Source: an uncultured Gammaproteobacteria bacterium
GTDB lineage: Bacteria; Patescibacteriota; Microgenomatia; Levybacterales; UBA12049
Length of the DNA stretch: 64,000 bases
Direction: 5' to 3'
NCBI GenBank assembly: GCA_964564035.1
Contig: CAZLZN010000001.1
Span: forward strand, 14,845 to 78,844
Under the pieces are notes generated by a model. That model saw nothing but the letters and a program-made list of their open reading frames with translations, had not been told where the DNA came from and ran no database searches. This document shows, piece by piece, positions 6,825 to 56,918 of this stretch. The stretch's first letter is position 1; every line of letters starts with the position of its first letter. Both the position numbers and the translations under genes were made by a program.

Positions 6825-7505
6825 CTAGGGAATTTTATCAATGCTTCTAATCAACCTTTCATCATCTCTCCCCGGAACATTGACAGCCGTAGATACTCCG
6901 TAAGACACCATTTCCGCGTCAGGATATGGCGATAAAAGCGGAAGTAGTATGTCCGGCTCTGTAGTATCCGGGTTAAGCCACGCGTCCTCAGCGTCCCTCC
7001 GAAGTATCACGGGCATTCTGGGATGAACCTGGCCCACCACCCCGTTTGCCTGTGTGGTAATTATTGTGTAGCTTGTAACCTCGTGTCCGTCTTTCGGATT
7101 CACCCACACATCATATAGCCCCGCGAACGCGAACATCCCTTCATTTTTCAATCTGAAATAATACGGTTGACTCGGTTTCTGTTTTTTATCCCATTCATAA
7201 AAACCCGTAGCCGGCACCAGGCACCTCTGCATTCTGAACGGCTTTCTATATGCAGGTTTATTTTCAATCCCCTCGGCCCTTGCATTGATCGTCTTAAATT
7301 TGAAACTGTCATCCTTGGCCCATGCCGGAATAAGCCCCCAAAACATAAGACCGATCTGATTCGGACTATGCCTGGTGACAACCGGATTCATCTGACCCGG
7401 CGCGATATTATAACGCGGGGACAAATCTTTCAGAGTATTAATCGTTCCAAACCTATCCCGCAACTCCCTCGCTTCCTTTACTACAAGTCCATATCTGCCG
7501 CACAT
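6825..7505 (-). CDS. yedK: SOS-response-associated peptidase (SRAP/YedK/HMCES family); abasic-site DNA-protein crosslinking protein.
   Basis: The protein begins MCGRY... (catalytic Cys2). It carries RYNIAPGQ, FYEW and HPRMPVIL motifs typical of SRAP. It is divergent from lexA. Confidence 0.85.
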   Translation of the reverse strand: MCGRYGLVVKEARELRDRFGTINTLKDLSPRYNIAPGQMNPVVTRHSPNQIGLMFWGLIPAWAKDDSFKFKTINARAEGIENKPAYRKPFRMQRCLVPATGFYEWDKKQKPSQPYYFRLKNEGMFAFAGLYDVWVNPKDGHEVTSYTIITTQANGVVGQVHPRMPVILRRDAEDAWLNPDTTEPDILLPLLSPYPDAEMVSYGVSTAVNVPGRDDERLIRSIDKIP

Positions 7506-7577
7506 AGCAAGAGAATTTTAGATCTTATGTAAAAGAAATAGGTAATAATTTTGCTATACGCACACACCCAAGACACC

Positions 7578-7609
7578 CAAACCCGGTTCGTTTTATGTAG
7601 ACAAACAAG
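7578..7609 (+). repeat. REP-like element copy A (aaacccggttcgttttatgtagacaaacaagg).
   Basis: About 80% identical to the two REP copies flanking the RAYT gene at 10032-10064 and 10769-10800. It contains the GTTTnnnnnnnnnCAAAC hairpin core and sits in the SRAP/lexA divergent intergenic region. Confidence 0.7.
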
Positions 7610-7678
7610 GTGATTTTCAAATAAAGGGCTGATATTAAATTTTAAATATTAAAATTTGGTAATAAATTAAAAATCCCC

Positions 7679-7713
7679 TTGACAGGAAACGATCGTTTCC
7701 TATATATTATACT
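7679..7713 (+). promoter_or_regulatory. lexA promoter with embedded operator: -35 TTGACA (7679-7684), perfect 16-bp palindrome GGAAACGATCGTTTCC (7685-7700) filling the spacer, and a -10 TATATA/TATTAT (7701-7710).
   Basis: Read directly. The palindrome GAAAC-GATC-GTTTC resembles the Gram-positive Cheo/LexA box (GAAC-N4-GTTC). The ATG of lexA lies only about 5-10 nt past the -10, so the mRNA is likely leaderless. Confidence 0.6.
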
Positions 7714-7715
7714 CA

Positions 7716-8284
7716 TGACTATTGATGAAGCAGCCAAAAGAATAAAAAAATTTTATCTGCTCAACAGACGGATGCCGTCATACAAAGAGCTATGCATTGA
7801 GCTGGATCTCTCCTCCAAAAAAAACAGTTTCAAATGGGCAAAAAAACTTATAGAGACGGGCCTGCTTGGGAAAGACAAACAGGGTAAACTCTTTCCCAAG
7901 TCCCTGTTCGCGATTCCCGATTTCGGCATCATCAAGGCGGGATATGCTGCGCCGGCGCACCAGACAGAAAATAATAGCCTGGATTTATATAAATTTATAC
8001 TCGATCTTCCGAATGGAGTTTTCTCTTTAACTATACACGGAGACTCAATGATCGACGCGTCGATCCGGGAAGGAGACATCGCTCTTATTGATCCGAACAA
8101 ACAGCCTCTCCACGGAGATATCGTCGCCGCTTTGGTGGATGGCGAGTGTACTCTCAAATATTTTTACAAAGATCACCGGGGCGTACGCCTTGTACCCGGC
8201 AATCCCGAATATCCCATTATCTATCCGCAAAACGAACTCGTCGTACAGGGAGTATTAATCCATTTAATAAGGAAGTTCAGATGA
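7716..8284 (+). CDS. lexA: LexA repressor (wHTH plus S24 peptidase).
   Basis: Ala-Gly cleavage site (IIKAG-YAAP), GDSM catalytic Ser and a downstream Lys (TLKYF). The ATG at 7716 is preferred over the TTG at 7679, which would read through the promoter. Confidence 0.85.
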
Positions 8285-8412
8285 GGATATTATGTGCTTC
8301 TTTTTGAAATTTAAAAATATTAATTTAATATGTTAAATCAAAACTCAAAAACCATAGGAACAAGCGTCTTAACCATAAAAGGCAAAATGGATCTTTAAGC
8401 CTTGATCTAGGT

Positions 8413-8440
8413 TTTGATCTTTGAGATTTGATTTTTGATC
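8413..8440. repeat. Heptamer tandem repeat (TTTGATC)-like x4: TTTGATC TTTGAGA TTTGATT TTTGATC.
   Basis: Read directly; intergenic, upstream of the small-ORF/polymerase operon. The same unit recurs at 15042-15062. Confidence 0.65.
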
Positions 8441-8526
8441 TAATTTAGCTTGACACGCCTGTTCGTCATCTCGCTCATACTAAATGATGTAAATTAATTT
8501 TCTTAGATAAGCTCTGAAGGGGAGGT

Positions 8527-8787
8527 ATGTTAGAAAAAATACATGAAAAAATTGATGTCATTACTATTTACAAGAAATATCCGGCACGGGTCATTCCATA
8601 TAAAATCAGATGGAACGGTAGAGATCATATTATTACGAAAATCGGGTATCATCACAAAATTCGTAAAGGCCATACGTTCTTTCATATCTTTTCTGTCTGC
8701 TCCGATACCTTAGCGTTCCGCCTTCGCTTTGACACAGAAACTATGTACTGGACGCTGGAGGAAGTATCAGATGGATTTACCGATTAG
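8527..8787 (+). CDS. Small hypothetical protein (86 aa) immediately upstream of, and overlapping, the Y-family polymerase gene; possible accessory subunit.
   Basis: ORF with the purine-rich AAGGGGAGG just upstream of the ATG. The 3' end overlaps the polymerase start by 17 nt. No recognised family. Confidence 0.4.
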   Translation: MLEKIHEKIDVITIYKKYPARVIPYKIRWNGRDHIITKIGYHHKIRKGHTFFHIFSVCSDTLAFRLRFDTETMYWTLEEVSDGFTD

Positions 8788-10015
8788 CAAAAATAAACCC
8801 CAAATTATGCATATTGATCTCGATTCTTGCTTCGCAACAATCGAACAACAGGCAAATCCACTCCTCCGGGGGAAGCCCATCGTTGTCGCCGCACACAATG
8901 CTCCCAATGGATGCATTCTGGCATCGTCTATTGAGGCTAAAAGGATGGGAATAAAAACCGGAATGAGAATTAAAGAGTCGCGCTTAATCTATCCCTATAT
9001 AATAATCCGCACGCCTGACCCGGCAAAGTATCGTGACGTTCATGTCAAATTCAAAAAAATTTTTTCGGATTATTCAAACAAGGTTATTCCTAAGTCAATT
9101 GATGAAGCGATAATAGATCTACATGATATAGAACGACTTAACCTTGACTTGGTTAAAATCGGCCGGGAAATAAAACAGCGAATGAAGACGGAAATAGGAG
9201 AATGGATAAGCTGCAGTATAGGAATCTCTACAAATCGATTTCTCGCTAAGCTTGCCGCAACTATCCATAAGCCGGACGGCCTCGATGTTATAACACACAA
9301 AAATCTGGTTGATATCTACAGCAGGATAGAACTTCTGGACCTACACGGAATCAATGTGCGGTACCAGGCGAGACTCAACGCATACGGAATATTCACGCCG
9401 ATGGATTTCCTGCGGGCAGCCTGTGAAACTCTCGAAAAAAAAGTTTTCTTAAGCATCTGCGGCCGGCAGTGGTATGAAAGAATACGTGGATACGAGACTG
9501 ATGACATCGAATTCAAGACCAAAAGCATCGGTCAACAATACGCGCTAAAAAAGCCGACGGCAAATCCTGCGGAACTCGGCCCCATGATGATGAAACTATG
9601 TGAAAAAATGGGAAGAAGACTGCGTCACAAAGGCTATACCGCGCATGGCATCCACGTGAGAATTAATTATAAAGACGGGACGACTTGGCATAGAGGTCGC
9701 ATGACGAATAGTGAGCTGTACACTACAATGGAACTATATAAAGTGGCGCTTCTTATTTTTAACCAGCAACCGGAAATTAAGCAAGCCACACTTCTTGCAG
9801 TAAGCTGTTACAAGCTGGAAGCAAACGTAAAATCCCAAATGTCTTTATTTGACGCTGATCACACAAAACATAGAAAAATGTCTGATGCTATGGATGAGAT
9901 AAATGACCGCTGGGGAGAATTTACCGTAACACCAGGCCTAATGCTCGGGACAGAGAATATTATTCCTGACAGCATTGCCTTCGGTCGCGTTAAAGAACTT
10001 GAAAACTTAGAATAA
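8771..10015 (+). CDS. dinB: Y-family translesion DNA polymerase (DinB/Pol IV-like).
   Basis: MHIDLDSCFATIEQ... matches the Y-family N-terminal DxD motif, and SIDEAIIDL supplies the catalytic D/E. A strong SD (GGAGGAA) sits 7 nt before the ATG at 8771, with an alternative ATG at 8807. Confidence 0.85.
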   Translation: MDLPISKNKPQIMHIDLDSCFATIEQQANPLLRGKPIVVAAHNAPNGCILASSIEAKRMGIKTGMRIKESRLIYPYIIIRTPDPAKYRDVHVKFKKIFSDYSNKVIPKSIDEAIIDLHDIERLNLDLVKIGREIKQRMKTEIGEWISCSIGISTNRFLAKLAATIHKPDGLDVITHKNLVDIYSRIELLDLHGINVRYQARLNAYGIFTPMDFLRAACETLEKKVFLSICGRQWYERIRGYETDDIEFKTKSIGQQYALKKPTANPAELGPMMMKLCEKMGRRLRHKGYTAHGIHVRINYKDGTTWHRGRMTNSELYTTMELYKVALLIFNQQPEIKQATLLAVSCYKLEANVKSQMSLFDADHTKHRKMSDAMDEINDRWGEFTVTPGLMLGTENIIPDSIAFGRVKELENLE

Positions 10016-10031
10016 TTTTTCCACAAATGCA

Positions 10032-10064
10032 CGAACCTGGTTTGTTTTATATTGACAAACAAGG
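10032..10064 (+). repeat. REP-like element copy B (left flank of the RAYT).
   Basis: cgaacctggtttgttttatattgacaaacaagg; an inverted partner lies at 10769-10800. Confidence 0.7.
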
Positions 10065-10096
10065 ACAGAGTGCGTAATACTAAATTATCGCTTAGT

Positions 10097-10768
10097 ATGC
10101 CATATAGAAAAATTCCACTTGTAAAAAATGAAATTTATCATATCTTCAACCGAAGCATTGCAAGACAGCCTATTTTTAAAACACAAATAGATCACAAACG
10201 AATTCTTGAGATTATAAACTTTTATAGACATGATACCAGACCCCTACGATTTTCACATTTTAAAAGGTTACCAATTGACCAAAAAAAAGATATCTTAGAG
10301 GAATATGCAAAGAATCAAAAATATCTCGTAGAAATATATGCATACTGCGTAATGCCAAATCATTTCCACTTCTTATTAAAAGCAACTCAAGACTCCGGAA
10401 TTTCAATTTTCATGAGAAACCTGCAACATAGTTATTCTAATTATTTTAATATAAAAAACAACAGGACAGGATCATTATTTCAGTCCATGTTTAAAGCAAT
10501 CAGAATAGAAACTGACGAGCAGCTTTTCCATGTTTCAAGATATATTCATTTAAATCCGGCAACTTCATTTATCATACCTATTGAAGCTCTTGAAACATAT
10601 CAATGGTCTTCATTTAAAGATTTTATAAACAAAGCAACTGAAAGCATGATCAATAAGCAGTATATTTATGAGAATTTTAAAAGCGTAGGAGAATACAAAA
10701 AGTTTGTGTATGATCAAGCTGATTATCAGCGCGAGTTAGATAAAATAAAGCACCTTATCTTCAAATAA
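10097..10768 (+). CDS. REP-associated tyrosine transposase (RAYT; IS200/IS605-like HUH Y1 transposase).
   Basis: HUH motif YCVMPNHFHFLL and catalytic Tyr motif RYIHLNP. Flanked by inverted REP copies, one of which abuts the stop codon. The ATG at 10097 is preferred over the TTG at 10052, which lies inside REP B. Confidence 0.75.
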   Translation: MPYRKIPLVKNEIYHIFNRSIARQPIFKTQIDHKRILEIINFYRHDTRPLRFSHFKRLPIDQKKDILEEYAKNQKYLVEIYAYCVMPNHFHFLLKATQDSGISIFMRNLQHSYSNYFNIKNNRTGSLFQSMFKAIRIETDEQLFHVSRYIHLNPATSFIIPIEALETYQWSSFKDFINKATESMINKQYIYENFKSVGEYKKFVYDQADYQRELDKIKHLIFK

Positions 10769-10800
10769 CCTTGTTTGTCTACCTAAATCAAACCGGGTTC
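10769..10800 (-). repeat. REP-like element copy C (right flank of the RAYT, inverted orientation).
   Basis: ccttgtttgtctacctaaatcaaaccgggttc is the reverse complement of the copy A/B consensus. It contains the GTTTG-N11-CAAAC hairpin. Confidence 0.7.
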
Positions 10801-10875
10801 AGTTAACATATTAACATCGCAATACAACGAGACCTCTTGACCTTGCCCGCTGAATTATTTTATATTTAAATAAGA

Positions 10876-11088
10876 ATGAAAAAAGAAACAATACTCTGGC
10901 AAATAATTGTAGTTATCCTCGGTCTACTCCTGATATTGACTCTAAACTATTATCTGCAGGAAAATAACAAAATAAAAGCCCTCTCGGAAACGGCAAAATG
11001 CATATCCGATATGAAAAACGCGTTTCCCGATGGAAGCAGATCCGATGTATGCGAAGACATCCTGAACTTCAAAAATAAATCCCTCTAA
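10876..11088 (+). CDS. Small hypothetical membrane-anchored or secreted protein (70 aa).
   Basis: N-terminal TM/signal-like segment ILWQIIVVILGLLLILTL. Confidence 0.35.
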   Translation: MKKETILWQIIVVILGLLLILTLNYYLQENNKIKALSETAKCISDMKNAFPDGSRSDVCEDILNFKNKSL

Positions 11089-11100
11089 ACCAGATCTTAA

Positions 11101-11409
11101 TCAACTCACTCGCCACAAAGACTTACTCAGATCTACTTTATCGCCCTCAAAAAAAACACCCTCTTCCTCTAGCATTTTTTTCTTGGAGCTTATACCGTCA
11201 CCGGCCGAATACCCGGTAAGCTTTCCGTCGGACGCGACTACCCTGTGACACGGAGTATTCGGAATATCGGGATTATTCCTCATACACATCCCGACAGCGC
11301 GGGCCGCCCGCGGACTTCCGGCGAGCACCGCGATCTGCCCGTAAGTTGCAACCTTACCCCTGGGAATTTTTCTAACCTCTTCATACACTCTAAATCCAAA
11401 CTTTCTCAT
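11101..11409 (-). CDS. ogt: Methylated-DNA-protein-cysteine methyltransferase, a short form with the DNA-binding/active-site domain only.
   Basis: Active-site motif PCHRVV and the upstream YGQIA...G motif. Confidence 0.8.
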   Translation of the reverse strand: MRKFGFRVYEEVRKIPRGKVATYGQIAVLAGSPRAARAVGMCMRNNPDIPNTPCHRVVASDGKLTGYSAGDGISSKKKMLEEEGVFFEGDKVDLSKSLWRVS

Positions 11410-11417
11410 ACTTCCCC

Positions 11418-11438
11418 TTAATACTTAATACTTAATAC
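11418..11438. repeat. Heptamer tandem repeat (TTAATAC)x3.
   Basis: Read directly; lies between the MGMT start and the dnaJ stop. The same unit recurs at 56942-56955. Confidence 0.7.
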
Positions 11439-11442
11439 TATC

Positions 11443-12318
11443 TTAAAACCATCCCTTTTTCCCCTGCAATTCTTCCTTCCTGAATTCCTCCAAAAGCTCT
11501 TTTTGTTTCTTATTCAGTTTTTTCGGAACACTGACTTTGATTCTCACATAATGATTCCCGCGCCCACTGCCGCGAAGATGCGGCATGCCCCGGCCGTTAA
11601 GGCGTATCAATATTCCGGGCTGTGTCCCCTCCGGAATTTTTATTTTTAGAGGACCGTCAATCGTCTCAACTTCAACCTCATCTCCCAGCGCGGCCTGAGC
11701 GATCGAAACTTCTTTCTCTGAAATGATCTCCGACCCTTCTCTTTCAAATCTCGGATCGGACGCTACATCGAGCACTATATCATATTTCTCAAATCTGATT
11801 CTCGAACCGCTGTCAACGCCAGCCGGTATTTTTATTTTCTGCTTCTCTCCGTTTACTACCACTTCTTTTTCAGTGCCTTTCGCCGCTTCCATAAAAGTAA
11901 TTCTGGCCGAATAAACAGGCCTTCTCTGCCGGCCGCCAAACGGACTGCCGCCGCCGAAAAATTGCTCAAAAATCTCAAAAGGATCGGAATAGCCTCCGAA
12001 ATTAAAATCAAAACCGCCTCCATTATTGGAATAAGTGTAATTAAAAGGCCCGTATTGTCCGCCCTGACCTCCATAAGGATTTTGTCCCGCGCCCTGTTCA
12101 TACGCCGAATGTCCGACCTGATCATACATCTTCCTTTTTTCATCATTCGCCAATACTTCGTAAGCTTTAGTTACCTCTTTGAACTTCGCCTCAGCATCCT
12201 TGGATTTATTTCTATCAGGATGATATTCCAAAGCAAGCTTACGGTAAGCCTTCTTGATCTCATCAAGACTCGCTGTTTTATTGACCCCCAATATTGAATA
12301 ATAATCTCCGCTCGCCAT
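11443..12318 (-). CDS. dnaJ: DnaJ-class co-chaperone without a Zn-finger (CbpA-type).
   Basis: J domain (YYSILGV...HPDRN) and a G/F-rich region, but no CxxCxGxG repeats. Confidence 0.85.
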
Positions 12319-12406
12319 ATTACTACCTGTTATTTACCAAAAAAGCGCCTTACTGCGCTCAATTATTTCAAATTTCTAATTTATAATTTGAAATTAATTT
12401 TCAATG

Positions 12407-12427
12407 TTTTAAATTTTAAATTTTAAA
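12407..12427. repeat. Heptamer tandem repeat (TTTTAAA)x3.
   Basis: Read directly, in the dnaK-dnaJ spacer. Confidence 0.7.
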
Positions 12428-12439
12428 CATTTATGTTTG

Positions 12440-12474
12440 ATTGAAAATTGAAAATTGAAAATTTCAAATTGAAA
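12440..12474. repeat. Heptamer tandem repeat (ATTGAAA)x3, followed by ATTTCAA and ATTGAAA.
   Basis: Read directly, in the dnaK-dnaJ spacer, ending 1 nt before the dnaK stop. Confidence 0.75.
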
Positions 12475-12475
12475 A

Positions 12476-14398
12476 CTATTCTACCACTTCTCCCTCAACC
12501 GGCTCATCTTTGTCTTTTTTCTTTTTATCTTCTTTTTTCTCGCCCTCAGCATTCTCAGCCTGACCCTCGGCGCCTTGATCCTGAGCCTGATCTCCGGTTG
12601 CGCCGGCTGCACTGTACATGCTCTGACCAATCTTTTGCAGATGATCCGAAAGTTCCTGAGTTTTTGCCTTAATATCTTCTTTGGAACCGCTATCGAGTAT
12701 ATCTTTTAGCGCCTTTACCTTTTCCTCAACTTCTTTCCTCAGATCCTCGCTGATCTTGTCTTTATCTTCACGTAATGCCTTCTCTGCTGTAAATATCAAA
12801 GCATCTGCCTGATTCCTGACTTCAACTTTTTCTTTCTTTTCTTCATCTTCTTTCGCGTGCAATTCAGCCTCTTTGGTCATTTTCTCAACTTCTTCTTTCG
12901 ATAAACCTGTCGATCCGGTTATTTTGATGCTTTGCGCTTTGCCTGTTGCCTTATCTTTCGCGGTAACATTCAGAAGTCCGTTCGCGTCAATATCAAAAGT
13001 AACCTCAATCTGCGGTACGCCTCTCGGCGCCGGCGGAATTCCGTCCAAAATAAATCTCCCCAGTGATTTATTATCGTTCGCCATCGGCCGCTCTCCCTGT
13101 AAAATATTTATTTCTACCTGCGTCTGATTATCGCCTGCTGTAGAAAATACCTGCGATTTTGAAGTAGGAATAGTTGTATTTCTTGTAATAAGCGGCGTAG
13201 ATACTGCCCCCATCGTCTCAATACCCAGAGTCAGTGGCGTAACGTCAAGAAGCAATACGTCCTTAACTTCTCCGCCGAGAACTCCGGCCTGCACGGCCGC
13301 GCCGACTGCGACTACTTCATCCGGATTGACCGATCTATTGGCTTCTTTCCCGAAAAACCGCGTTACAACCTCAACCACTTTAGGCATCCTCGTCATACCT
13401 CCGACCAAAATTACTTCGTTTATATCTTTCTCAGTCATTCCGGCATCTTTTAGAGCCTTCTTGACCGGCTCAAGCGTTTTTTCAACTAATTCACCGACAA
13501 CCATCTCAAGCTTTGATCGTGTCAAAGTCATTGTCAGATGCAGCGGTCCGTCTTTGCCTTGAGTTATAAACGGCTGATTTATTTGCGCTTCCTGACTGCT
13601 GGACAGCTCTATCTTTGCCTTCTCCGCCGACTCTTTCAGCCTCTGAAGGGCTTGCGAATCTTTGCGTAGATCAATACTGTTTTCTTTCTGGAACTCCTCG
13701 GCTATATATTCTATTATTTTCTGATCAAAATCGTCTCCACCGAGATGCGTATCGCCATTCGTGGATTTGACGTGGTATACGCCTTCTCCAAGCTCAAGAA
13801 TTGAGATATCAAAGGTTCCGCCTCCCAAATCATAAACCGCAATCGTGTGTGTATTTTTCTTATCGAGCCCGTATGCCAAAGCTGCAGCTGTCGGTTCATT
13901 AATAATACGAAGTACCTCAAGTCCGGCTATCTCACCGGCCTGTTTGGTAGCCTGTCTCTGACTGTCATCAAAATACGCCGGAACCGTAATGACCGCCTGT
14001 GTTACTTTACTTCCCAAATACGCTTCGGCATCTGCCTTAATTTTCTGAAGAATCATCGCGGAAACTTCCTGCGGAGTAAATGTTTTACCCTCAACCTCAA
14101 CGACTGCCATATCATCACGACCTGCCTTGACTGTATATGGAAGCCATTTTGTATCAAACTGGACAGACTTATCATGGAACTTCTTTCCCATGAGTCTCTT
14201 AATTGAAAAGATTGTCCTCTTTGGCTTAAGCACCATTTGCCTCTTCGCGACGTCTCCGACCACGTGCGAGATTGGATCGACTACAGACGGTATAACATTG
14301 CGTCCTTCTGCGGAATGGATCACTTTTGGCGATCCGCCCTCCATTACAGCGACACACGAATTTGTTGTTCCTAAATCAATTCCTATTATTTTTCCCAT
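12476..14398 (-). CDS. dnaK: Chaperone DnaK (Hsp70).
   Basis: [18 protein letters not shown]..., DLGGGTFD and the full Hsp70 architecture. Confidence 0.95.
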
Positions 14399-14526
14399 AA
14401 TTTCCTTTCGTTAATAAACTACTTGTCAAAATTTATACCTCCCCAAGCTTTCTGATTCGAACTTATCATCAGTGTTCTGCTCTGCAGAACTTCTTCAGCG
14501 CTCTGCTCTGCAGAAATTACAATATC

Positions 14527-15033
14527 TTATTCTTCAGTGTCCTGCTTTGCTGAACCTACTATCACCTGTGCAGGTCTCAAAACCTTATCATTTATTATAT
14601 ACCCGGTTCTCAAAACTTCAAGCACTTTGTTTTCTTCTCCTTCCGCAACTTTTATACATTCCATCAGATTTGGATCAAACTCTTTACCCTGCGCTTCGAT
14701 CTGAGTTACCCCTTCGGCTTTCAGTGCGTCCAGAAACTGATCAATGCTTACTTTCAAACCTTCATTGTTTATGTGCTGATTTGCCAGTAATAGTGTATCC
14801 AAAACAGGCAATAATCGCAATAGCAATTCTCTGTTTGCCGACCTTATTAAATTTAACCTTTCATCTGCCGTCCGTTTCTGTAAATTTTGATAATCGGCAA
14901 GCGCCCTCTTATACTTACTCTCATTTTCCTCAACCTGAGCTTTCAATTTTTCCAGTTCCTGTTCATCCTCAGGTTTCTTCAGCTCTTTTTCTTCTACATC
15001 TTCCTTTTTATTTTTATTATCATCACTCTTCAT
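14527..15033 (-). CDS. grpE: Nucleotide exchange factor GrpE.
   Basis: Coiled-coil N-terminus and GrpE C-terminal motifs; syntenic position hrcA-grpE-dnaK-dnaJ. Confidence 0.9.
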   Translation of the reverse strand: MKSDDNKNKKEDVEEKELKKPEDEQELEKLKAQVEENESKYKRALADYQNLQKRTADERLNLIRSANRELLLRLLPVLDTLLLANQHINNEGLKVSIDQFLDALKAEGVTQIEAQGKEFDPNLMECIKVAEGEENKVLEVLRTGYIINDKVLRPAQVIVGSAKQDTEE

Positions 15034-15041
15034 CTTTAATT

Positions 15042-15062
15042 TTTGATCTTTGATCTTTGATT
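15042..15062. repeat. Heptamer tandem repeat (TTTGATC)x2 plus TTTGATT.
   Basis: Read directly, in the hrcA-grpE spacer. Confidence 0.7.
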
Positions 15063-15068
15063 TTATCT

Positions 15069-15803
15069 CTACCAGCCCGATGCGCTCGACTCAATCAAAT
15101 TCCCAAAATACCTGACTGTCGGTATAATAGATGTATATCTGAGCCTGACCGGACCTACCACTCCAATTTTACCCGTAATATTCCTTGGTGTCTTAAAATC
15201 TGTAAATATAAATCCATAAGGCCCATGCAGACTGTCTCCCAACTCATCCTCGATCAACACATGAATATCCTCAGACTCATTATTGGTATGAGCAAATATC
15301 CCTCTGATCAGATCATATTCATCAATAGCAGTCAGCAAATTTTTAGTAACGTCTATATCGTAAAACTCCGGCATATCCAAAATATTTGCGTACCCCGAGC
15401 AGTACAGGTTCTCATTGTCTATAGTCGCGATTGCCAAAGTGTTGGTTTTCTCCGCAAGAGATTTTGTAACTTCCTTCAAAAACCTCTGCATCTTATCTCT
15501 ATAGTCCCAAACTTTCTCCTTTAGCGCGACCTCTTCGACGATCGACAGCTCTTTTTCCTTCATCAACTCCCTGACATAAAACTTAATTCCTTTAGAAGTA
15601 GGTATGCGCCCGGCCGAAGAATGCGGCTTTTTCAGATATCCCTGCTCAGAGAGCTGCACCATCTCATTTCGTATCGTAGCAGGAGATGCGCTTATGTTCC
15701 TCTTCTTCTCAATCGTCTCGGAACCGACCGGCTCCGCTGTCTCAATATATTCCTCGACAATACTCTTGAGTATTTCAATTTGCCTTTGCGTTAAGTTATG
15801 CAT
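15069..15803 (-). CDS. hrcA: Heat-inducible transcription repressor HrcA, a compact 244-aa form.
   Basis: N-terminal wHTH (QRQIEILKSIVEEYIETAEPVGS) and its position at the head of the grpE-dnaK-dnaJ operon. Confidence 0.85.
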   Translation of the reverse strand: MHNLTQRQIEILKSIVEEYIETAEPVGSETIEKKRNISASPATIRNEMVQLSEQGYLKKPHSSAGRIPTSKGIKFYVRELMKEKELSIVEEVALKEKVWDYRDKMQRFLKEVTKSLAEKTNTLAIATIDNENLYCSGYANILDMPEFYDIDVTKNLLTAIDEYDLIRGIFAHTNNESEDIHVLIEDELGDSLHGPYGFIFTDFKTPRNITGKIGVVGPVRLRYTSIIPTVRYFGNLIESSASGW

Positions 15804-15812
15804 ATTACTAAT

Positions 15813-15839
15813 TTAGCAATAATATAACATGAGTGCCAA
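15813..15839. promoter_or_regulatory. Degenerate CIRCE-like inverted repeat (TTAGCAATA-N9-GAGTGCCAA) immediately upstream of hrcA.
   Basis: Compared by eye with the CIRCE consensus TTAGCACTC-N9-GAGTGCTAA. The right half matches 8/9 and the left half 6/9. It lies about 10 nt upstream of the hrcA ATG. Confidence 0.4.
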
Positions 15840-15884
15840 TTCATGTCAAGAGATAAAAATCCCGCAACTTAACGCTCGGGAAAT

Positions 15885-16075
15885 CATATACTGCGCTTTG
15901 TAGGGAGTGACCTGCCTTGCAGCCGTGTCTGCCTGCAGGCAGGAAATCCCGTCCGATACGAAAAACCTCTTCGCTCTCATCCTACAGCTTATGGTACGAC
16001 TACGCTCGCTATCCTGAGCATGCCGAAGGACGCTCGAATTTTTCCGCGAAGGGGGATAACATTCAGTATTAATTA
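15885..16075. ncRNA. GC-rich structured element; candidate small RNA of unknown class.
   Basis: An island of about 190 nt with visibly higher GC than its flanks. It contains an 11-bp hairpin (CCTGCC-t-TGCAG...CTGCA-GGCAGG). It lies between the hrcA promoter region and yidD. The only ORF here (89 aa, minus strand) has an implausible composition. It does not match RNase P, tmRNA or SRP RNA by eye. Confidence 0.25.
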
Positions 16076-16098
16076 TCATTATTCTGTATAATAACTGT

Positions 16099-23105: not shown

Positions 23106-23384
23106 TTATTTTTTGTGGCGCTTAGTAAATTCTTTATATATTTCTTCAATACTTATTCCCAAAGTCGAAAGCATAACTAGGCTATGGAACCATAGATCAG
23201 CGGTTTCCGAAATTACCTCTTTTTTGTTTTTATTTTTTGCGGCAATAACCGCCTCAACCGCCTCTTCGCCTACTTTTTGAATGATCCTGTCATCTCCGGA
23301 CTTAAAAAGCTCCGCGACATAAGAATTTTTAGGCATTCTCTTTTTTCTGTCCTCGATTATTTTATAAACTTCATCAATGTTCAT
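23106..23384 (-). CDS. hisE: Phosphoribosyl-ATP pyrophosphohydrolase.
   Basis: 92 aa; ...SYVAELF...GxxxIxxKVGEEAxE... HisE (MazG-like) pattern. Confidence 0.85.
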   Translation of the reverse strand: MNIDEVYKIIEDRKKRMPKNSYVAELFKSGDDRIIQKVGEEAVEAVIAAKNKNKKEVISETADLWFHSLVMLSTLGISIEEIYKEFTKRHKK

Positions 23385-23401
23385 GATTTTGTTTAATACT
23401 A

Positions 23402-23746
23402 TTATATAACTGTTTTTTTGTCCGTTTTTACTTTGCTAAAAAAACAGCTTAGACTGCCGGTATGACACACATTTTTACCTATCAGTGTAACTTTTATCAA
23501 AAGCGTATCCAAATCGCAATCCCTTAATATTTGATTAACCTTCAGCATATTTCCCGACTCCTCCCCTTTCATCCATAATTTCTTACGTTTTCTGCTCCAA
23601 AAATGCACATATCCTGATTCCATAGTTTTGGTCAGCGCTCTATCATTCATATATCCAAGCATATATACCTGATTTGATTCAGAGTCTTGAATTATTGCCG
23701 GCACCAGCCCGCTATTTTTCTCAAAATTTATTAATTTATGTTCCAT
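23402..23746 (-). CDS. hisI: Phosphoribosyl-AMP cyclohydrolase.
   Basis: 114 aa; ...GLVPAIIQD...YMNDRALTKT...HFWSRKR...KGEESG...DCD HisI motifs. Confidence 0.85.
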   Translation of the reverse strand: MEHKLINFEKNSGLVPAIIQDSESNQVYMLGYMNDRALTKTMESGYVHFWSRKRKKLWMKGEESGNMLKVNQILRDCDLDTLLIKVTLIGKNVCHTGSLSCFFSKVKTDKKTVI

Positions 23747-23807
23747 AATTCATATTTGTAATTTATAATTTGCATAAAAATTTAAAATTATAAATTGAAA
23801 ATTGCCA

Positions 23808-24563
23808 TTAAATCCTCATCTCTATTTTATTCTTTCTTAGATTATTCTTTACTTCTTTAATCCTAAGCTCTCCAAAATGAAAAAGTGATGCCGCTAGAGC
23901 GGCGTCCGCTTTGCCTGTTGTAAAAACATCCCGAAAATCCGAAAGACTCCCCGCACCACCTGACGCAATTACCGGCACATTCACACGGGATGAAACACTG
24001 GCAGTCAAGCCCAGGTCAAAACCTATTTTTGTACCGTCCCGATCCATACTTGTCAAAAGTATCTCTCCGGCGCCTAGTTTGACAGCATCCCGCGCCCATT
24101 TAACCGCGTCTTTTCCGGCAGAGATACGTCCGCCGTTTACAAACACATCCCACCCGGATCCGGCTTTTTTAGCATCAATCGCGAGTACAACACATTGATT
24201 TCCGAAAATATTTGCCAATTCCGATATGATCCTTGGATTTTTGACAGCAGCCGAATTCACCGCTATCTTATCCGCGCCGTTTTTCAATATACTTCTCGCG
24301 TCATTGACATTGTTTATCCCCCCTCCGACAGTAAACGGGATAAATATTTTTGCCGCAATTTGCTTTACAATATCCAGCATAATATCCCGCCGCTCATGTG
24401 TCGCGGTTATATCCAAAAAAGTAAGCTCATCTGCTCCTTCATTATTATATATCTCGGCAAGCCGCACAGGATCTCCCGCGTCTTTTATATTTACGAAATT
24501 AACCCCTTTGACAACCCTTCCGTCTTTTATATCCAGACATGAAATTATTCTTTTAGCTATCAT
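23808..24563 (-). CDS. hisF: Imidazole glycerol phosphate synthase, cyclase subunit.
   Basis: [20 protein letters not shown]...; ATG at 24563, 2 nt after the hisA stop. Confidence 0.9.
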
Positions 24564-24565
24564 AA

Positions 24566-25273
24566 TCAACTTCTTATCATCTCTTTAATTGAAATCTTAT
24601 TTTCATACAAAGCCTTACCGACTATTACGCCTTCGACTCCTATTGCATCTAACTTTTTTATAGCACTTATACTAGATATTCCGCCCGCTGCAATAATAGG
24701 CACATTTAAATTATCAATAAGTTTTTTAACCTCTTTATAATTCGGAACAGTCAGTGTGCCATCCCTCGTTACATCTGTATAAATAAAACGCATAACGCCG
24801 CTTTCCTCAAGCTCCCGCGCTTTCTTTAACGCGCCGGTATCTGCCTCTTCCTGCCATCCTTTAATAGCTAATTTTCCGTTTTTCGCATCAATCGATACTA
24901 TTATATTGTCCCGATATTTAATTAAAAGTTTTTCAAAAATCGGCTTTTCTATAACCGCCATAGTGCCGATAATTATTCTTTCTATTCCAATTGCGATCAG
25001 CTTATCGGCTGTCTGAATATTATTGATACCGCCCCCGACTTGAATCGGAATTTTGACGGCGTTACGAATTTTTTTAATAACGTCAAAATTTTTAAGAGTG
25101 CTTTTTTCCGCTCCGTCTAAATCAACGATGTGTAAATATTTTGCGCCTTCACTTTCCCATCGCAGGGCAAACTCAACCGGATCATCGCTATACACTTTTA
25201 CATCACTAAATCTACCCTGCGTAAGCCGCACGCATTTACCGTTTTGGATATCTATTGCCGGAAAAATTATCAC
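24566..25273 (-). CDS. hisA: ProFAR isomerase.
   Basis: [17 protein letters not shown]...; 4-nt overlap with hisH. Confidence 0.9.
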
Positions 25274-25908
25274 AATAAATTCTCCTTTCGCTCGACTGCT
25301 ATATCATAAAAATTATTCAACAATTTTAAACCCGTTTCTCCACTTTTTTCAGGATGAAACTGTACTCCATATATATTTTCATACGCGAAGGCACTGCAGA
25401 ATTTTTTCCCATATCTCGTAACTCCGGCAACAACTGCATCGTCAGCCGGCGCGCAGTAATAACTATTCACAAAATAAAAGTGACTATTATTCTCTATATT
25501 TTTAAATAAATTCTGAATTCTGAATTCTGAATTCTGAATTCCGACTTTATTCCATCCAATTTGCGGCACTTTAAATTTTGTTCTAAATTTCTTTACGTTT
25601 CCCTTTATCAAATCCAGACATTCGGTTTCTCCCTCTTCGCTAAATGACATCATAATCTGCATTCCAAGACAGATACCGAGAATTGGAGTTCCGCTCATCA
25701 CTTTCTCGATTATGACTTGGTCCATACCCGTAGACTTCAAATTTTTCATACCGGTACCCGCTGACCCTACGCCGGGCAATATCAGCGCTTCAGACTTTTG
25801 TAATTCTGAAATGCTGTCTGCAATCAAATAAGGTATCCTCAATTTTTTCAGCGCGTTTGCAACACTGGCCAAATTCCCAAGTCCGTAATCAATTATTGTT
25901 AATTTCAT
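25270..25908 (-). CDS. hisH: Imidazole glycerol phosphate synthase, glutaminase subunit.
   Basis: GxGNLxS, GVG and HPEKS motifs. It carries a 28-nt heptamer array in a loop (see the repeat at 25511-25538). Confidence 0.9.
   Translation of the reverse strand: MKLTIIDYGLGNLASVANALKKLRIPYLIADSISELQKSEALILPGVGSAGTGMKNLKSTGMDQVIIEKVMSGTPILGICLGMQIMMSFSEEGETECLDLIKGNVKKFRTKFKVPQIGWNKVGIQNSEFRIQNLFKNIENNSHFYFVNSYYCAPADDAVVAGVTRYGKKFCSAFAYENIYGVQFHPEKSGETGLKLLNNFYDIAVERKENLL
25511..25538. repeat. Intragenic heptamer tandem array (TTCTGAA)x4 inside hisH; it encodes ...IQNSEFRIQN....
   Basis: Four perfect 7-nt units, read directly. They lie in a loop that is about 4 aa longer than in E. coli HisH, by memory alignment. 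Confidence 0.8.
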
Positions 25909-25913
25909 ATAAT

Positions 25914-26789
25914 TTAAATTATCATTTTTTCAATTGGCAACACTATTATCCCTGTCGCGCCGTACTTCTTTAACTTCTCGATCGTTTCCCAAAAAAACTC
26001 TTCTTTGACAACAGTTTGCACAGAAACCCAATCCCGATCGGCAAGCGTTGAAATAGTCGGAGACCTAAGGCCCGGCACTACTCTTTTTATTTTATCTATA
26101 GCATTTTTGGGCACATTCATCATGATATATTTATAATCCCGCGCGCTCAAAACAGCATTAAAACGCATCAATAACCCGTCAAGAATTTTTTTCCTGCCGT
26201 TTACAAAAGAATCTTTATTCGCGATCAAAACCGCCTCGGAATCGTAAACTTTCTCCAATATCCTCAGGTCATTAAGCGCCAAAGTGCTCCCCGTAGAAAC
26301 CAGATCAACAATTGCGTCGGCGATTCCCAGGGCAGGAGTAATCTCCAGAGAACCGCTTATCGCAACTATCTCCACGTCAATTTTATTTTTCTTAAAAAAA
26401 CTTTTTGCGGACACAGGATATGATGTCGCGATTCTTTTCTTATCCAAATCGATAATGCTTTTGTACTTGGACTCTTTCGGAACAGCGGCATACAGTGAGC
26501 AATAACCATAATTTAAATTAAAGATCTTTCTTACATCCGGCCGCTCTTCATTCAAAATGTTTTGTCCGACAATTCCCAGATCAACGGTTCCGGTCGCGAC
26601 ATAATTCGGAATATCATCGTCTCTGACATACAATATTTCAAGCGGAAAATTCCTGCACTTCGAAAATAATTTTTGCTTATAGCTTGTAAATTCGAGCCCT
26701 GATCTTCGCAAAAATTCAAGAGTCTCCTCCGTCAGTCTGCCGCTTTTTTGCACAGCTAATTTTAAATTTTTATTGTTTAAATTTGCCAT
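25914..26789 (-). CDS. hisG: ATP phosphoribosyltransferase, long form.
   Basis: MANLNNKNLKLAVQKSGRL... The ATG at 26789 sits directly after the T-box terminator U-tract. Confidence 0.9.
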   Translation of the reverse strand: MANLNNKNLKLAVQKSGRLTEETLEFLRRSGLEFTSYKQKLFSKCRNFPLEILYVRDDDIPNYVATGTVDLGIVGQNILNEERPDVRKIFNLNYGYCSLYAAVPKESKYKSIIDLDKKRIATSYPVSAKSFFKKNKIDVEIVAISGSLEITPALGIADAIVDLVSTGSTLALNDLRILEKVYDSEAVLIANKDSFVNGRKKILDGLLMRFNAVLSARDYKYIMMNVPKNAIDKIKRVVPGLRSPTISTLADRDWVSVQTVVKEEFFWETIEKLKKYGATGIIVLPIEKMII

Positions 26790-26995
26790 AAAAAAACTCC
26801 CGTCCTTTACAACCAATATCTTTGGTTATAAGGAACGAGAGGTCAAACATTTCTCCCGCGGTCCCATCCTCATTCCCCGATTCCTGTATCTATATCGGGG
26901 CGCTCTATACCGACTCCGCATCTTGTGCGACATCGTCTACCCAATTTTACGGCTGGATTTCCGTGGAGTATTTCGCTCCCAACGCTCTCTTTATT
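26790..26995 (-). promoter_or_regulatory. T-box riboswitch leader of the his operon, probable tRNA-His specifier.
   Basis: On the minus strand: AAGAGAGCG... stem I start; GAGGATGGGACCGCGGGAG matches the T-box sequence AGGGUGGNACCGCG; a CAC is present in the candidate specifier region. A terminator hairpin (CTCGTTCCTT...AAGGACGGGAG) plus U7 directly abuts the hisG ATG. Confidence 0.55.
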
Positions 26996-27142
26996 TTTAA
27001 TGAATAGAATTCCGGATCGTGACTCCGGTCAGACGTTTTATAATAAAATTATTATATAAATATAATGCATGCGTGTCAATTGCGAACTCATTTGCTTTCA
27101 GCTATTTCAAAAACTATAATAAATCAAACGATCTTAGCAATG

Positions 27143-42037: not shown

Positions 42038-42610
42038 CTATGGGGAATTTTTATTTATAGTTTTGATCTTTGCACTTTGATCTTTGATCTTTTCTGGTAC
42101 TTCGTACATATAAAACTCGTTCTTCAAATCCTGCTTCACAATCGGCAGATCAATTTTATATACAAAAGTCACAATCTTCGTACCCGGTTTCAGCTCTTTA
42201 AGAAGTTTCGGCTTCAACTTCGCAAGAGTTTTAGGAATAAGATACATAAATACAACTGTCGCATCTCCGATCTCCGACTGGAAAAAATTCTGCCTTTTGA
42301 TCTTTACCTTGTATCCAACGTTATTAATAAATACCATCAATTTTGAAATAAAGTACCTCAGAGGATCAATTTCAATTCCCACCGCTCGCGCGCCGAATTT
42401 CTTCGCAGCCGTAATCAATAGAGTGGAATCCCCGGATCCCAGATCATATATGACATCTTTTTTGGAGATATTTACAAACTTACAAATCAACCGGCTTCGA
42501 GCCCCATTGGTTCTCCACCAGGGAGACCATGGGCTATCAGGCGGCCATACCATTGAGAGCAGGAACAGAAGCAGAGTGACTGTAACTAATATCAGAACCG
42601 ACTCGACCAT
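42038..42610 (-). CDS. Class I SAM-dependent methyltransferase with an N-terminal TM anchor.
   Basis: VIYDLGSGDSTLLI (motif I) and the context AVGIEIDP; it overlaps sodX by 19 nt. Confidence 0.6.
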   Translation of the reverse strand: MVESVLILVTVTLLLFLLSMVWPPDSPWSPWWRTNGARSRLICKFVNISKKDVIYDLGSGDSTLLITAAKKFGARAVGIEIDPLRYFISKLMVFINNVGYKVKIKRQNFFQSEIGDATVVFMYLIPKTLAKLKPKLLKELKPGTKIVTFVYKIDLPIVKQDLKNEFYMYEVPEKIKDQSAKIKTINKNSP

Positions 42611-43014
42611 ATTACTTTTCCTATTATACTCCCTCTGTCGAGATAACCAAAGTACCTGCTGTCGGTACTCATATTTTTATTATCCCCCTCAACAAAATAT
42701 TTACTGCTTTCAATTCCGGTAATTCTTTTAATAAGCACCCTCCCGCCCCTCGGATCTCTAACTGCAACTATATCGCCCTGCTCAGGCTTATCAAAAATAT
42801 ATACTATTCTGCTCACTATAAGCAGATCGCCTTGATTAATAATAGGCTTCATGCTATTGCCATGGATTTTGAAAAATAAAATTGGTGAAAATTTATTAAA
42901 TAACTGAATTAAAGAAGAATATATTTTGAATTTTGAGCTGTAGTTTTGACTGTTGACTTTTGAATTTTTACTTTCTTTATTACTTCGCGGCTTTCGTTGC
43001 TTTAAAAATTTCAT
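42592..43014 (-). CDS. sodX: S26-family signal-peptidase-like protease; predicted NiSOD maturation peptidase SodX.
   Basis: GNSMKP (catalytic Ser) and GDNKNMSTDSRYFG (S26 box E-like). It lies immediately downstream of, and overlapping, sodN. Confidence 0.7.
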   Translation of the reverse strand: MKFLKQRKPRSNKESKNSKVNSQNYSSKFKIYSSLIQLFNKFSPILFFKIHGNSMKPIINQGDLLIVSRIVYIFDKPEQGDIVAVRDPRGGRVLIKRITGIESSKYFVEGDNKNMSTDSRYFGYLDRGSIIGKVIWSSRF

Positions 43015-43393
43015 CGATCTCCTGAATTAATTTCAATAATTCCTCTGCATCCGCCGGGTTTGTTGATTTCTTAGTTTGTCCTGCCGCTTTTGTCGCCTTC
43101 CAAAAAAGATCATGCAGATTTGGATATTTCTCTAAATGCTCAGCCTTGAAATAATCGGTCCACAAAACCCACAAATGATGTTTACAAAGCTCTGCCCGTT
43201 CTTCTTTGATAATAATTGCCCGAGTCTTGAAATGCACATCATCGGATTCATTATATTTTTTTATCGTGTTAAGAATACTTTGTGCTTCAATTCGAGCCTG
43301 GACCGGATCATAAACCCCGCATGGGAGATCGCAGTGTGCATAAGCTGCTTGGACAGGGAGTAGCTGAAATAATTTCTTGATCAAAACTTTCAT
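42980..43393 (-). CDS. sodN: Nickel-containing superoxide dismutase precursor (NiSOD).
   Basis: Leader MKVLIKKLFQLLPVQAAYA, followed by the Ni-hook HCDLPCGVYDP that defines mature NiSOD. The ATG at 43393 is preferred over the longer TTG-containing ORF, and gives a precursor of about 137 aa. Confidence 0.85.
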   Translation of the reverse strand: MKVLIKKLFQLLPVQAAYAHCDLPCGVYDPVQARIEAQSILNTIKKYNESDDVHFKTRAIIIKEERAELCKHHLWVLWTDYFKAEHLEKYPNLHDLFWKATKAAGQTKKSTNPADAEELLKLIQEIDEIFKATKAAK

Positions 43394-43508
43394 CTCATTA
43401 ATGATAGTATCCGTACGCAAAAAAATCAAGATAGGAATCAGTAAGAAAAGCCTTCTTCTTACAGCAATATTACTAAATATCCTAAAACCGTCGGGTATAA
43501 TTAACGTT

Positions 43509-43901
43509 ATGGAAATGCATCTGAAGATAGCGTCAGTTATCGCCAATCTCCTGGACAACAGTTTTGAGATTTTCGGCAGACGCTTCGGGATAAACGGCCT
43601 GCTCGGATTACTGCCCGGCTTAGGAGACCTGATTCCCGCCCTGTTATCACTTTACCTGGTCTGGGTCGGAACCAAAATGAATCTCCCCAAAACCGAAATA
43701 GCCCGCATGCTTGGCAATATTGGATTTAATTTCTTCGTCGGCCTGATTCCGCTGGTCGGAGATTACATCGATTTTTTCAATCACGCTAATATGAAAAACC
43801 TGGCGATACTGCGCAAATATTCTCAAGATAAAATTATAGACGGGGAAATAATTGAGTCTGAGAATTTGACAAATAAATCAAATAATATTACTGTCAAATA
43901 G
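43509..43901 (+). CDS. Small membrane protein, DUF4112-like.
   Basis: FGINGLLGLLPGLGDLIPALLSLYLV pattern. The internal start at 43509 is preferred, because the ORF's 43377 start would overlap the sodN 5' end. Confidence 0.45.
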   Translation: MEMHLKIASVIANLLDNSFEIFGRRFGINGLLGLLPGLGDLIPALLSLYLVWVGTKMNLPKTEIARMLGNIGFNFFVGLIPLVGDYIDFFNHANMKNLAILRKYSQDKIIDGEIIESENLTNKSNNITVK

Positions 43902-56411: not shown

Positions 56412-56918
56412 ATGGATCAGCAGACAGCTCAAAATAAAAAACTCGTTATCGGTTGGTTCTCGTTTACCTGCTGTGAAGACAGTACAATTCTCCTCACCGA
56501 ACTCCTCAATGACAATTTACTCGAATGGAAAAAACTGGTCGAGTTTAGACACCTCAAAGCACTCAAAACAAAAAACTCAATGGAAGGACTTGATGTCGCT
56601 TTTATCGAAGGCGCGGTTTCATCAGATTCCCAGGCGGAAGAGGTCAAAAAAATCAGAAACAATGCCAAATATGTAGTCGCGATCGGCTCCTGTGCCTGCA
56701 CAGGGATGCCCTCAGCGTCCAGAAACGCCTTTGTCAGCGAGCAAATAAACGACAAAATCAAATGGTATATGAGCCAGTTCAGCTATAGCGACAAAGTCCG
56801 CAAGCTCGAAGAGGTCATAACTGTCGACGACAAAGTCCAGGGCTGCCCCATGAGCGCATCATCTTTTATCGAAACTTTGACGAAATACTTAAAGCAATTT
56901 AATATAATAGCGGTTTAA
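56412..56918 (+). CDS. [NiFe]-hydrogenase small subunit, proximal-cluster-only, group-3-like.
   Basis: FTCCEDS, GSCACTG and QGCP cysteine motifs; 168 aa. Confidence 0.75.
   Translation: MDQQTAQNKKLVIGWFSFTCCEDSTILLTELLNDNLLEWKKLVEFRHLKALKTKNSMEGLDVAFIEGAVSSDSQAEEVKKIRNNAKYVVAIGSCACTGMPSASRNAFVSEQINDKIKWYMSQFSYSDKVRKLEEVITVDDKVQGCPMSASSFIETLTKYLKQFNIIAV

Follow-up and report, generated by a model that had tools for sequence, protein, structure and literature searches.

Why would a bacterium keep six contiguous genes of histidine synthesis behind a T-box leader, with hisB, hisC and hisD missing from their side? The question is raised by the cluster hisG-H-A-F-I-E and its leader, on the minus strand of a 64,000-nucleotide (nt) stretch of contig CAZLZN010000001.1, which we call the window and whose positions are used below; loci of relatives carry L numbers. 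The initial annotation of this DNA had suggested that, if the three genes were absent genome-wide, the operon would act as a generator of the purine precursor AICAR (5-aminoimidazole-4-carboxamide ribonucleotide, ZMP) under the control of tRNA-His charging. Our analysis supports another answer. We consider it likely that a working, stripped-down T-box specific for tRNA-His goes together with an ordinary split pathway, in which hisD, hisC and hisB are encoded elsewhere. The most interesting part of the locus is the riboswitch variant, not the metabolism.

The leader comprises the following parts.

27051-27079, minus strand: sigma-70-type promoter TTGACA-17 nt-TATAAT (-35 at 27079-27074, -10 at 27056-27051), matching the consensus at 12 of 12 positions.
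26830-27039, minus strand: T-box(His) leader of the ultrashort-Stem-I type, aptamer through antiterminator, supported by the Rfam T-box model RF00230 (31.8 bits), the family model R1 (131.9 bits) and covariation.
27012-27028, minus strand: reduced Stem I hairpin CCGG-AGUCACGAU-CCGG, with the specifier CAC at 27021-27019 and then the purine G.
26964-26981, minus strand: Stem II-like hairpin GGAG/CUCC with loop CGAAAUA, aligned to Stem II by Rfam; 5 of 5 pairs compensatory in the family.
26939-26964, minus strand: Stem IIA ACGG/CCGU with the F-box-like CCGUAA, plus the IIB pseudoknot AUCC (26958-26955)/GGGU (26942-26939), of which 4 of 4 pairs covary.
26909-26937, minus strand: additional hairpin X, placed after Stem IIA/B and before Stem III, whose internal segment UGUC/GGAG is conserved; 5 of 8 pairs compensatory.
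26875-26900, minus strand: Stem III, CCCCGAU...AUCGGGG, which Rfam aligns to Stem III, with covariation in 6 of 6 pairs.
26830-26870, minus strand: T-box sequence and antiterminator, with the core AGGAUGGGACCGCG at 26870-26857 and the predicted tRNA 3'-end-binding bulge UGGG at 26866-26863.
26790-26841, minus strand: intrinsic terminator, an interrupted hairpin of 9 + 10 base pairs (bp) at 26841-26797 followed by U7 at 26796-26790; centroid fold -23.9 kcal/mol.

The transcript would start near 27044, and a TTGACA/TATAAT pair is found at the equivalent position in the leaders of relatives. Two elements named in the initial annotation are present as described: its T-box motif, GGATGGGACCGCGGGAG, lies at 26869-26853 (minus strand) inside a covarying family of 20 leaders, and the U7 of its terminator directly touches the ATG of hisG.

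Recognition of the element by Rfam was only partial. The RF00230 model matches 26828-27000 (minus strand) at 31.8 bits (E = 2.2e-5 in a local scan and 0.0028 over the whole window, with permissive filters), which is below its gathering score of 93 bits; at default or gathering thresholds no T-box is reported in the window, and a SAM (S-adenosylmethionine) riboswitch is the sole match. The alignment is good over the 3' half of the model, including Stem II, Stem IIA with its F-box-like sequence, Stem III and the T-box/antiterminator; the core AGGAUGGGACCGCG aligns there with high posterior probability and is invariant in all family members. In Stem I, the window leader has 4 nt in place of 88 model positions, and hairpin X is an insertion relative to the model. 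The other family members tested, L055 (32.9 bits) and L037 (45.8 bits), also fall under the gathering score. Since these scores amount to about one third to one half of the threshold, threshold-based annotation would miss such T-boxes. We thus class the window leader as a T-box by mechanism and core, but place it outside RF00230 as curated and outside the ultrashort class known from ileS.

To which lineage does this leader belong? The initial annotation had noted that T-boxes are restricted mainly to Firmicutes and a few other phyla and so constrain the lineage. That inference misleads here, since the T-box does not point to the Firmicutes: all relatives belong to the Microgenomates, a group of the Candidate Phyla Radiation (CPR/Patescibacteria). 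In a scan of species-representative genomes, the nearest HisG relatives share 51-72% identity with the window protein and lie in Microgenomates metagenome-assembled genomes (MAGs) labelled Gottesmanbacteria and Blackburnbacteria; protein searches added HisG/HisD matches named Levybacteria and Daviesbacteria. Metagenome and protein-database searches gave HisG identities of 91% for L068, which is syntenic with the window from TIM to HrcA, 82% for L069 and 70% for L046 and L049. Six loci with his operons and leaders typical of Microgenomates (L001, L003, L006, L007, L008 and L011) were found under 'uncultured Gammaproteobacteria bacterium' titles (third-party annotation MAGs), and these labels look wrong.

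Twenty related leaders from Microgenomates contigs share one common architecture, in the order promoter, AAAGCG..UGA, hairpin of 4-5 bp with loop AGUCACGAU, GA-GCU, Stem II hairpin, Stem IIA/B, extra hairpin, Stem III, AGGAUGGGACCGCG antiterminator and 3' hairpin. The specifier loop is invariant in 19 of them, the loop of L055 ending in C. The Stem I hairpin is paired in all members and its four pairs all covary (CCGG, CUGG/CCAG, GUGG/CCAC, GUGA/UCAC and UUCC/GGAA). The pseudoknot occurs as GUUG/CAAC, AUUG/CAAU, ACUG/CAGU and GUUU/AAAC, besides AUCC/GGGU in the window. In L068, which stands outside the covariation alignment, it reads GUCU/AGAU, unlike the window but complementary too; because the sequence differs and the pairing is kept, the T-box element is constrained within the immediate lineage of the window and L068. 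In the alignment made with, and thus fitted to, the family covariance model R1 (built from 14 of the 20 leaders), 93.6% of cells are paired, versus at most 48.7% when the partners are slid, and 30 of 46 pairs are compensatory; covariation extends to all pairs of the Stem I hairpin, of Stem II and of the IIA/B pseudoknot. Independently of the model, RNAalifold on a plain MAFFT alignment recovered the same set of helices, and 28 of its 45 pairs are compensatory. In this prediction the specifier hairpin has 5 bp, an A-U closing pair turning the specifier loop into the 7-nt loop GU-CAC-GA, which has anticodon-loop geometry. In about 690 kb searched, R1 detects a single element in each T-box locus, in every case upstream of hisG, and scans with R1 and the T-box model revealed no other T-box of the His ultrashort type in the window or in any locus retrieved.

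In the literature, we found no T-box report for Microgenomates or for CPR/Patescibacteria. The riboswitch variant looks new, being His-specific, placed before biosynthetic and tRNA genes, mostly terminator-ended and found in the CPR, to which T-boxes would now extend.

Which tRNA would such a leader sense? The specifier codon of the window leader is CAC (His), and together with the purine that follows it in the hairpin loop it matches the anticodon GUG. Moreover, the G of the UGGG bulge matches the discriminator C73 in 12 of 12 tRNA-His(GUG) genes of relatives, all of which also encode G-1. On these sequence signatures, the leader is predicted to be specific for tRNA-His.

The tRNA itself is encoded nearby in many relatives. 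In 12 of the 20 members, the T-box terminator is separated from hisG by a tRNA-His(GUG) gene with encoded G-1 and C73. These members are L037 (9840-10003), L004, L005, L008, L009, L010, L011, L046, L047, L051, L073 and L075. The U-run of L037 and L009 directly adjoins G-1, and the ATG of hisG there is 0-3 nt past the tRNA 3' end. Three loci without a T-box, L034, L077 and L082, likewise have a tRNA-His gene before hisG. Where the T-box stands before the tRNA-His gene, the riboswitch would control how much of its own ligand is made, and processing of the tRNA at loci of the L037/L009 type would leave a nearly leaderless hisG mRNA. We found no published report of tRNA genes downstream of T-boxes.

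How might the switch work? The antiterminator alone folds at -11.9 kcal/mol versus -23.9 kcal/mol for the terminator, and CUCUCGUUCC is common to the helices of both, which makes the two folds mutually exclusive. According to these folding predictions, the default state of the switch would be off, as in other T-boxes. The GUG anticodon of uncharged tRNA-His would pair with CAC in the terminal loop of the 4-5 bp Stem I hairpin, and Stem II and the IIA/B pseudoknot would assist the binding, a help that would be needed because the elbow-binding platform is absent. The free 3' end of the tRNA (C73-C-C-A) would then pair with the UGGG bulge and stabilise the weak antiterminator, so that RNA polymerase reads past the terminator into hisG-H-A-F-I-E. 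Charged tRNA-His would be unable to pair in this way; the stronger terminator would form and transcription would stop at U7.

It might be argued that the 3' hairpin is mainly or solely a sequestrator of the Shine-Dalgarno (SD) sequence, that control is translational and that the U-run is incidental. Indeed, the sole SD-like sequence of the window leader, GGGAG (26801-26797), sits inside the 3' arm of the terminator, 7 nt upstream of the ATG. The same holds in L068 and L069, which like the window have no tRNA before hisG and share with it an identical junction GGACGGGAG-U7-AUG. The literature, moreover, links a platform-less Stem I to translational control, and L055 carries the 3' arm CUAAGGAGG without a U-run. 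However, a U-run of at least 6 follows directly after the 3' hairpin, itself of -23 to -32 kcal/mol, in 17 of the 20 leaders; the U-runs of L009 and L010 are weaker and L055 has none. Furthermore, a tRNA-His gene and not an open reading frame (ORF) comes next after the T-box in the 12 leaders named above, often directly 3' of the U-run. Since a tRNA has no ribosome-binding site to hide, control at these loci would be transcriptional. Sequestration as the main or sole mechanism is therefore unlikely in our view. In the window lineage, we infer that the hairpin, besides terminating transcription, probably blocks translation as well by occluding the SD sequence. As an observation apart, in L054/L055 the arm CUAAGGAGG is followed by UUUCAUC-GUG with no U-run, giving an SD-sequestering version of the same riboswitch family.

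The genes behind this leader are the following.

25914-26789, minus strand: hisG, ATP phosphoribosyltransferase, long form with C-terminal regulatory domain (TIGR00070 203 bits, TIGR03455 112 bits); ATG at 26789, 291 amino acids (aa).
25270-25908, minus strand: hisH, glutaminase subunit of imidazole-glycerol-phosphate (IGP) synthase (TIGR01855 215 bits).
24566-25273, minus strand: hisA, ProFAR (phosphoribosylformimino-AICAR ribonucleotide) isomerase (TIGR00007 273 bits).
23808-24563, minus strand: hisF, cyclase subunit of IGP synthase (TIGR00735 359 bits).
23402-23746, minus strand: hisI, phosphoribosyl-AMP cyclohydrolase (NF000768 140 bits).
23106-23384, minus strand: hisE, phosphoribosyl-ATP pyrophosphatase (NF001611 112 bits).

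All six are contiguous, as had been annotated, and intact; their NCBIfam equivalog matches all exceed the curated cut-offs, and the 291 aa of HisG equal the length of its closest homologues. They encode the first six reactions of histidine synthesis, from phosphoribosyl pyrophosphate and ATP to IGP and AICAR. The translational coupling proposed for the whole set fits its first four genes, where hisG and hisH are separated by 5 nt, hisH and hisA overlap by GTGA and hisA and hisF are 2 nt apart, but not the last two, with gaps of 61 nt (hisF-hisI) and 17 nt (hisI-hisE). The end of hisE abuts the end of a convergent glycosyltransferase gene at 23105.

The reported absence of hisB, hisC and hisD from the locus was borne out over the entire 64-kb window, in which neither a Pfam scan of 50 ORFs of at least 110 aa (every long ORF except antisense shadows of longer genes) nor tblastn with HisD, HisC and HisB queries from an Aggregatibacter operon found any of the three. 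In most relatives, tblastn maps gave the order hisG-D-C-(phosphatase or gap gene)-B-H-(A)-F-I-E. The window operon has this order without the D-to-B block, at whose place stands the 5-nt hisG-hisH spacer.

Could the six genes then be decaying leftovers of a recent deletion, or the hisG-hisH junction an assembly artefact? In favour of this, the genes that the window lacks in comparison with its relatives form an exactly contiguous block. However, the same junction occurs in independent assemblies from other samples (L068 and L069), and the HisG of the window strain was seen on 14 contigs. Between the window and L068, the ratio of non-synonymous to synonymous substitution rates (dN/dS) is 0.044 for hisG, 0.128 for hisH, 0.155 for hisA, 0.109 for hisF, 0.135 for hisI and 0.120 for hisE; this range of 0.04-0.16 compares with 0.01-0.18 in 13 flanking genes, dS being about 0.5-1.05 overall and about 0.7-1.0 for the his genes. 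All six genes, as noted, also exceed the equivalog cut-offs. With the shared junction and the low dN/dS, decay or artefact is effectively refuted, and we give it only a very slight chance. The six genes are, as judged from their sequences, functional and under purifying selection. The arrangement G-H-A-F-I-E without D, C and B is also found in L068, L069, L046, L049 and L056, from independent samples, and is neither an artefact nor a fresh deletion.

Its origin is less simple. In a neighbour-joining tree of concatenated HisG, HisH, HisF, HisI and HisE, the window groups with L068 (100% bootstrap), L046 with L049 (100%) and the full operon of L076 with L046/L049 (100%), and the clade of all five has 78%. 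A single origin of the arrangement was considered and rejected: the four loci without D, C and B (window, L068, L046 and L049) were monophyletic on their own in 0 of 300 bootstraps, and the picture is complicated by the chimeric L076. In this locus (9360-16087), a short-form HisG (214 aa) with D-C-B is joined to an H-A-F-I-E half that groups with L046/L049 (100% bootstrap); HisH and HisF place the locus with L046/L049, and HisG does not. The two halves of L076 have different histories, and therefore halves of his operons have recombined in this group.

If the three genes are not beside hisG, where are they? We infer that hisD, hisC and hisB, with the phosphatase, are probably encoded elsewhere in the genome, and this ordinary split pathway is the most likely reading. 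In this clade it is common for his genes to lie outside the main cluster, since many Microgenomates operons lack hisA and some loci have only hisG and hisE or just hisG. Loci with only hisG and hisE, in the order T-box-tRNA-His-hisG-hisE, are L010 and L011 (9500-11150) and L052; L055 (9720-10840) has only T-box-hisG. A single HisA/HisF-family gene, HisF-like, with no hisA was observed in the otherwise complete operons of L004, L007, L008, L037, L051, L070, L071, L073, L075 and L082; here hisA lies elsewhere or one enzyme does both jobs. The window lineage has hisA. Outside the clade, complete clustering of his genes is the exception, the genes being usually scattered, and in Corynebacterium glutamicum hisEG forms a locus of its own (PMC3896937). 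For the Microgenomates, the literature yielded nothing relevant on histidine synthesis.

A working T-box combined with a split pathway nevertheless has several points weighing against it. The window leader is the most divergent full-length member of its family (131.9 bits with R1), and the 3' side of its K-turn-like Stem I base has AA where the consensus has GA, followed by an A/U-rich insert of about 24 nt. For tRNA to be captured fast enough, transcriptional T-boxes are held to depend generally on the platform of a long Stem I (PMC7583486). As to the genes, no separate hisD-C-B was seen, and in 21 of 21 distinct loci with hisD/C/B these directly follow hisG, before hisH where the contig reaches it; as the block always adjoins hisG in the loci seen, its translocation is undocumented in this clade. 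In particular, no stand-alone hisD-C-B locus was found in the contexts of ten loci, eight of which were aimed at HisD or at HisG without a matching HisD contig. The candidates came from a protein-database search with the HisD of L001, cross-matched to the HisG matches. The eight contexts were P0210, P0225, P0212, P0017, P0037 and P0108, with HisD or HisG lacking its partner on the contig, and P0095 and P0056, with N-terminally extended HisD. Seven of them are full operons with D-C-B between hisG and hisH, and the contig of P0056 (L078) begins at hisD. Daviesbacteria, considered as additional cases lacking D, C and B, were likewise rejected, since full operons were found there.

The same negative results bear on the idea that the pathway is truly truncated, with hisD, hisC and hisB lost genome-wide in the window lineage and separately in L046/L049, and the operon kept for a role other than histidine, such as adenine-to-guanine nucleotide conversion through AICAR, inosine monophosphate (IMP) and guanosine monophosphate, or IGP or AICAR for another use. 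The lack of a stand-alone D-C-B locus in the ten contexts speaks for it, as does the conservation of the D/C/B-less operon under purifying selection in at least two lineages; deleting a contiguous block is also mechanistically easier than translocating it. CPR genomes are, moreover, often biosynthetically patchy, and if this reading were true, a reduced CPR genome would have retained these genes for a non-histidine role. However, we know of no other use or fate of IGP, and intermediates that are phosphorylated are ill suited to exchange with a host. The ring in the AICAR that HisHF releases stems from the ATP used by HisG (pathway knowledge; PMC3896937). Because its ring comes from consumed ATP, the route from HisG to HisHF yields no net purine, and at most converts adenine nucleotides to IMP. 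The covarying tRNA-His-specific sensor is retained, with the pseudoknot pairing kept between the window and L068, and HisG retains its histidine-feedback domain; sensor and domain would otherwise be pointless, and histidine is thus the likely end product. A truncated pathway is therefore improbable, and the AICAR generator first proposed finds no support, as sister genomes also have complete operons. The absence of genes in cis is no evidence of pathway rewiring, and a split pathway under a His T-box remains the answer we prefer.

Other regulators occur at the same place in relatives. A TrpR-family (PF01371) ORF lies just upstream of the hisG leader in L049, L043, L044, L048, L066, L070 (9652-9933), L075 (8422-8724) and L076 (8975-9292), and is divergent in L077 and L082. 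It probably encodes a histidine repressor of the HisR type, which has been described from Firmicutes and other phyla. L049 and L075 have both this ORF and the T-box; the window lacks the ORF.

The window holds several further features away from the his cluster. The SAM riboswitch, of the SAM-I type, lies at 61140-61239 (plus strand; 55.2 bits, above threshold), upstream of two ORFs at 61287-63200, the second with a MetE N-terminal-like domain. At 42592-43558 (minus strand), a gene for nickel superoxide dismutase adjoins an S26/S24-type peptidase, which probably is its maturation protease, an unexpected finding for a CPR-type genome. A damage-response cluster at 6825-10768 comprises an SRAP peptidase, a LexA-like S24 repressor and a Y-family polymerase, with an adjoining IS200-like Y1 transposase. 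NiFe-hydrogenase small- and large-subunit-like genes are found at 56412-58265 (plus strand). At the start of the window, 579-2873 (minus strand) encodes a protein of 764 aa that has a phage Baseplate_J-like domain.

How does this locus compare with known systems? Among known systems, Lactococcus and other Lactobacillales have his operons that T-boxes control (PMC9413887). With the classical class I His T-boxes of RF00230, as in Lactococcus lactis and the Lactobacillales, the window leader appears to share the pathway, the T-box core, the competition between terminator and antiterminator and the logic of antitermination. In contrast to the Microgenomates family, which lacks 88 Stem I model positions and scores 32-46 bits, the classical members have a long Stem I, a specifier internal loop, an AG bulge and a distal loop, and exceed the Rfam threshold. 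In gene arrangement, the window resembles Corynebacterium glutamicum, where hisEG is unlinked from hisDCB-...-hisHA-impA-hisFI, and loci with hisG and hisE only also exist in L010, L011 and L052. Unlike in C. glutamicum, the split of the window separates G and HAFIE from DCB, and the second locus (hisD/C/B) was not seen in the window lineage. The leader-peptide his attenuator of Enterobacteria (RNA attenuators occur in some Firmicutes as well) has a similar layout to T-box-less sister contigs, at the same position. Indeed, L048 (700-870), L066, L043, L044, L002, L003, L006 and L034 have no T-box; upstream of hisG they carry a short ORF in which two His codons stand side by side or close together (e.g. 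MNQTITQATASNHHATLPSRAV*), followed by a GC hairpin and a U-run. This looks like a leader-peptide attenuator, so that two RNA mechanisms would alternate at one operon within the clade. The window has no short His-codon ORF, and its leader would be of the tRNA-binding riboswitch type.

The closest parallel is the ultrashort Stem I T-box riboswitch, reportedly described by Sherwood, Grundy and Henkin in 2015 for actinobacterial ileS, with structures said to come from Mycobacterium ileS. Like that class, the Microgenomates family has a short Stem I helix that bears the specifier in its terminal loop and lacks the distal platform for binding the tRNA elbow, keeps Stem II and the IIA/B pseudoknot, and conserves the UGGN bulge and the discriminator core. 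The extra insertions near Stem III (hairpin X) and atop helix A2, where L001 and L007 carry long inserts, are also shared; platform-less T-boxes often have insertions in Stem III and on helix A2 (PMC7583486, a 2020 review). T-boxes that are short and carry the specifier in a hairpin loop have been described as actinobacterial and translation-regulating, and all ultrashort T-boxes are stated to regulate ileS and respond to tRNA-Ile (bioRxiv 10.1101/2023.02.28.530422, a 2023 preprint). The family differs on each of these points. It combines CAC with UGGG, as expected for tRNA-His instead of tRNA-Ile, and its targets are his biosynthesis and tRNA-His genes; its hosts are Microgenomates and not Actinobacteria. 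Where the ileS class has an SD sequestrator and no terminator, 17 of 20 members have a hairpin with a U-run of at least 6; L055 alone resembles a pure sequestrator, and the window leader could do both. Thus, by pairing an ultrashort Stem I with a terminator, in another phylum and with another specificity, the family offers a natural test of the kinetic argument for the Stem I platform.

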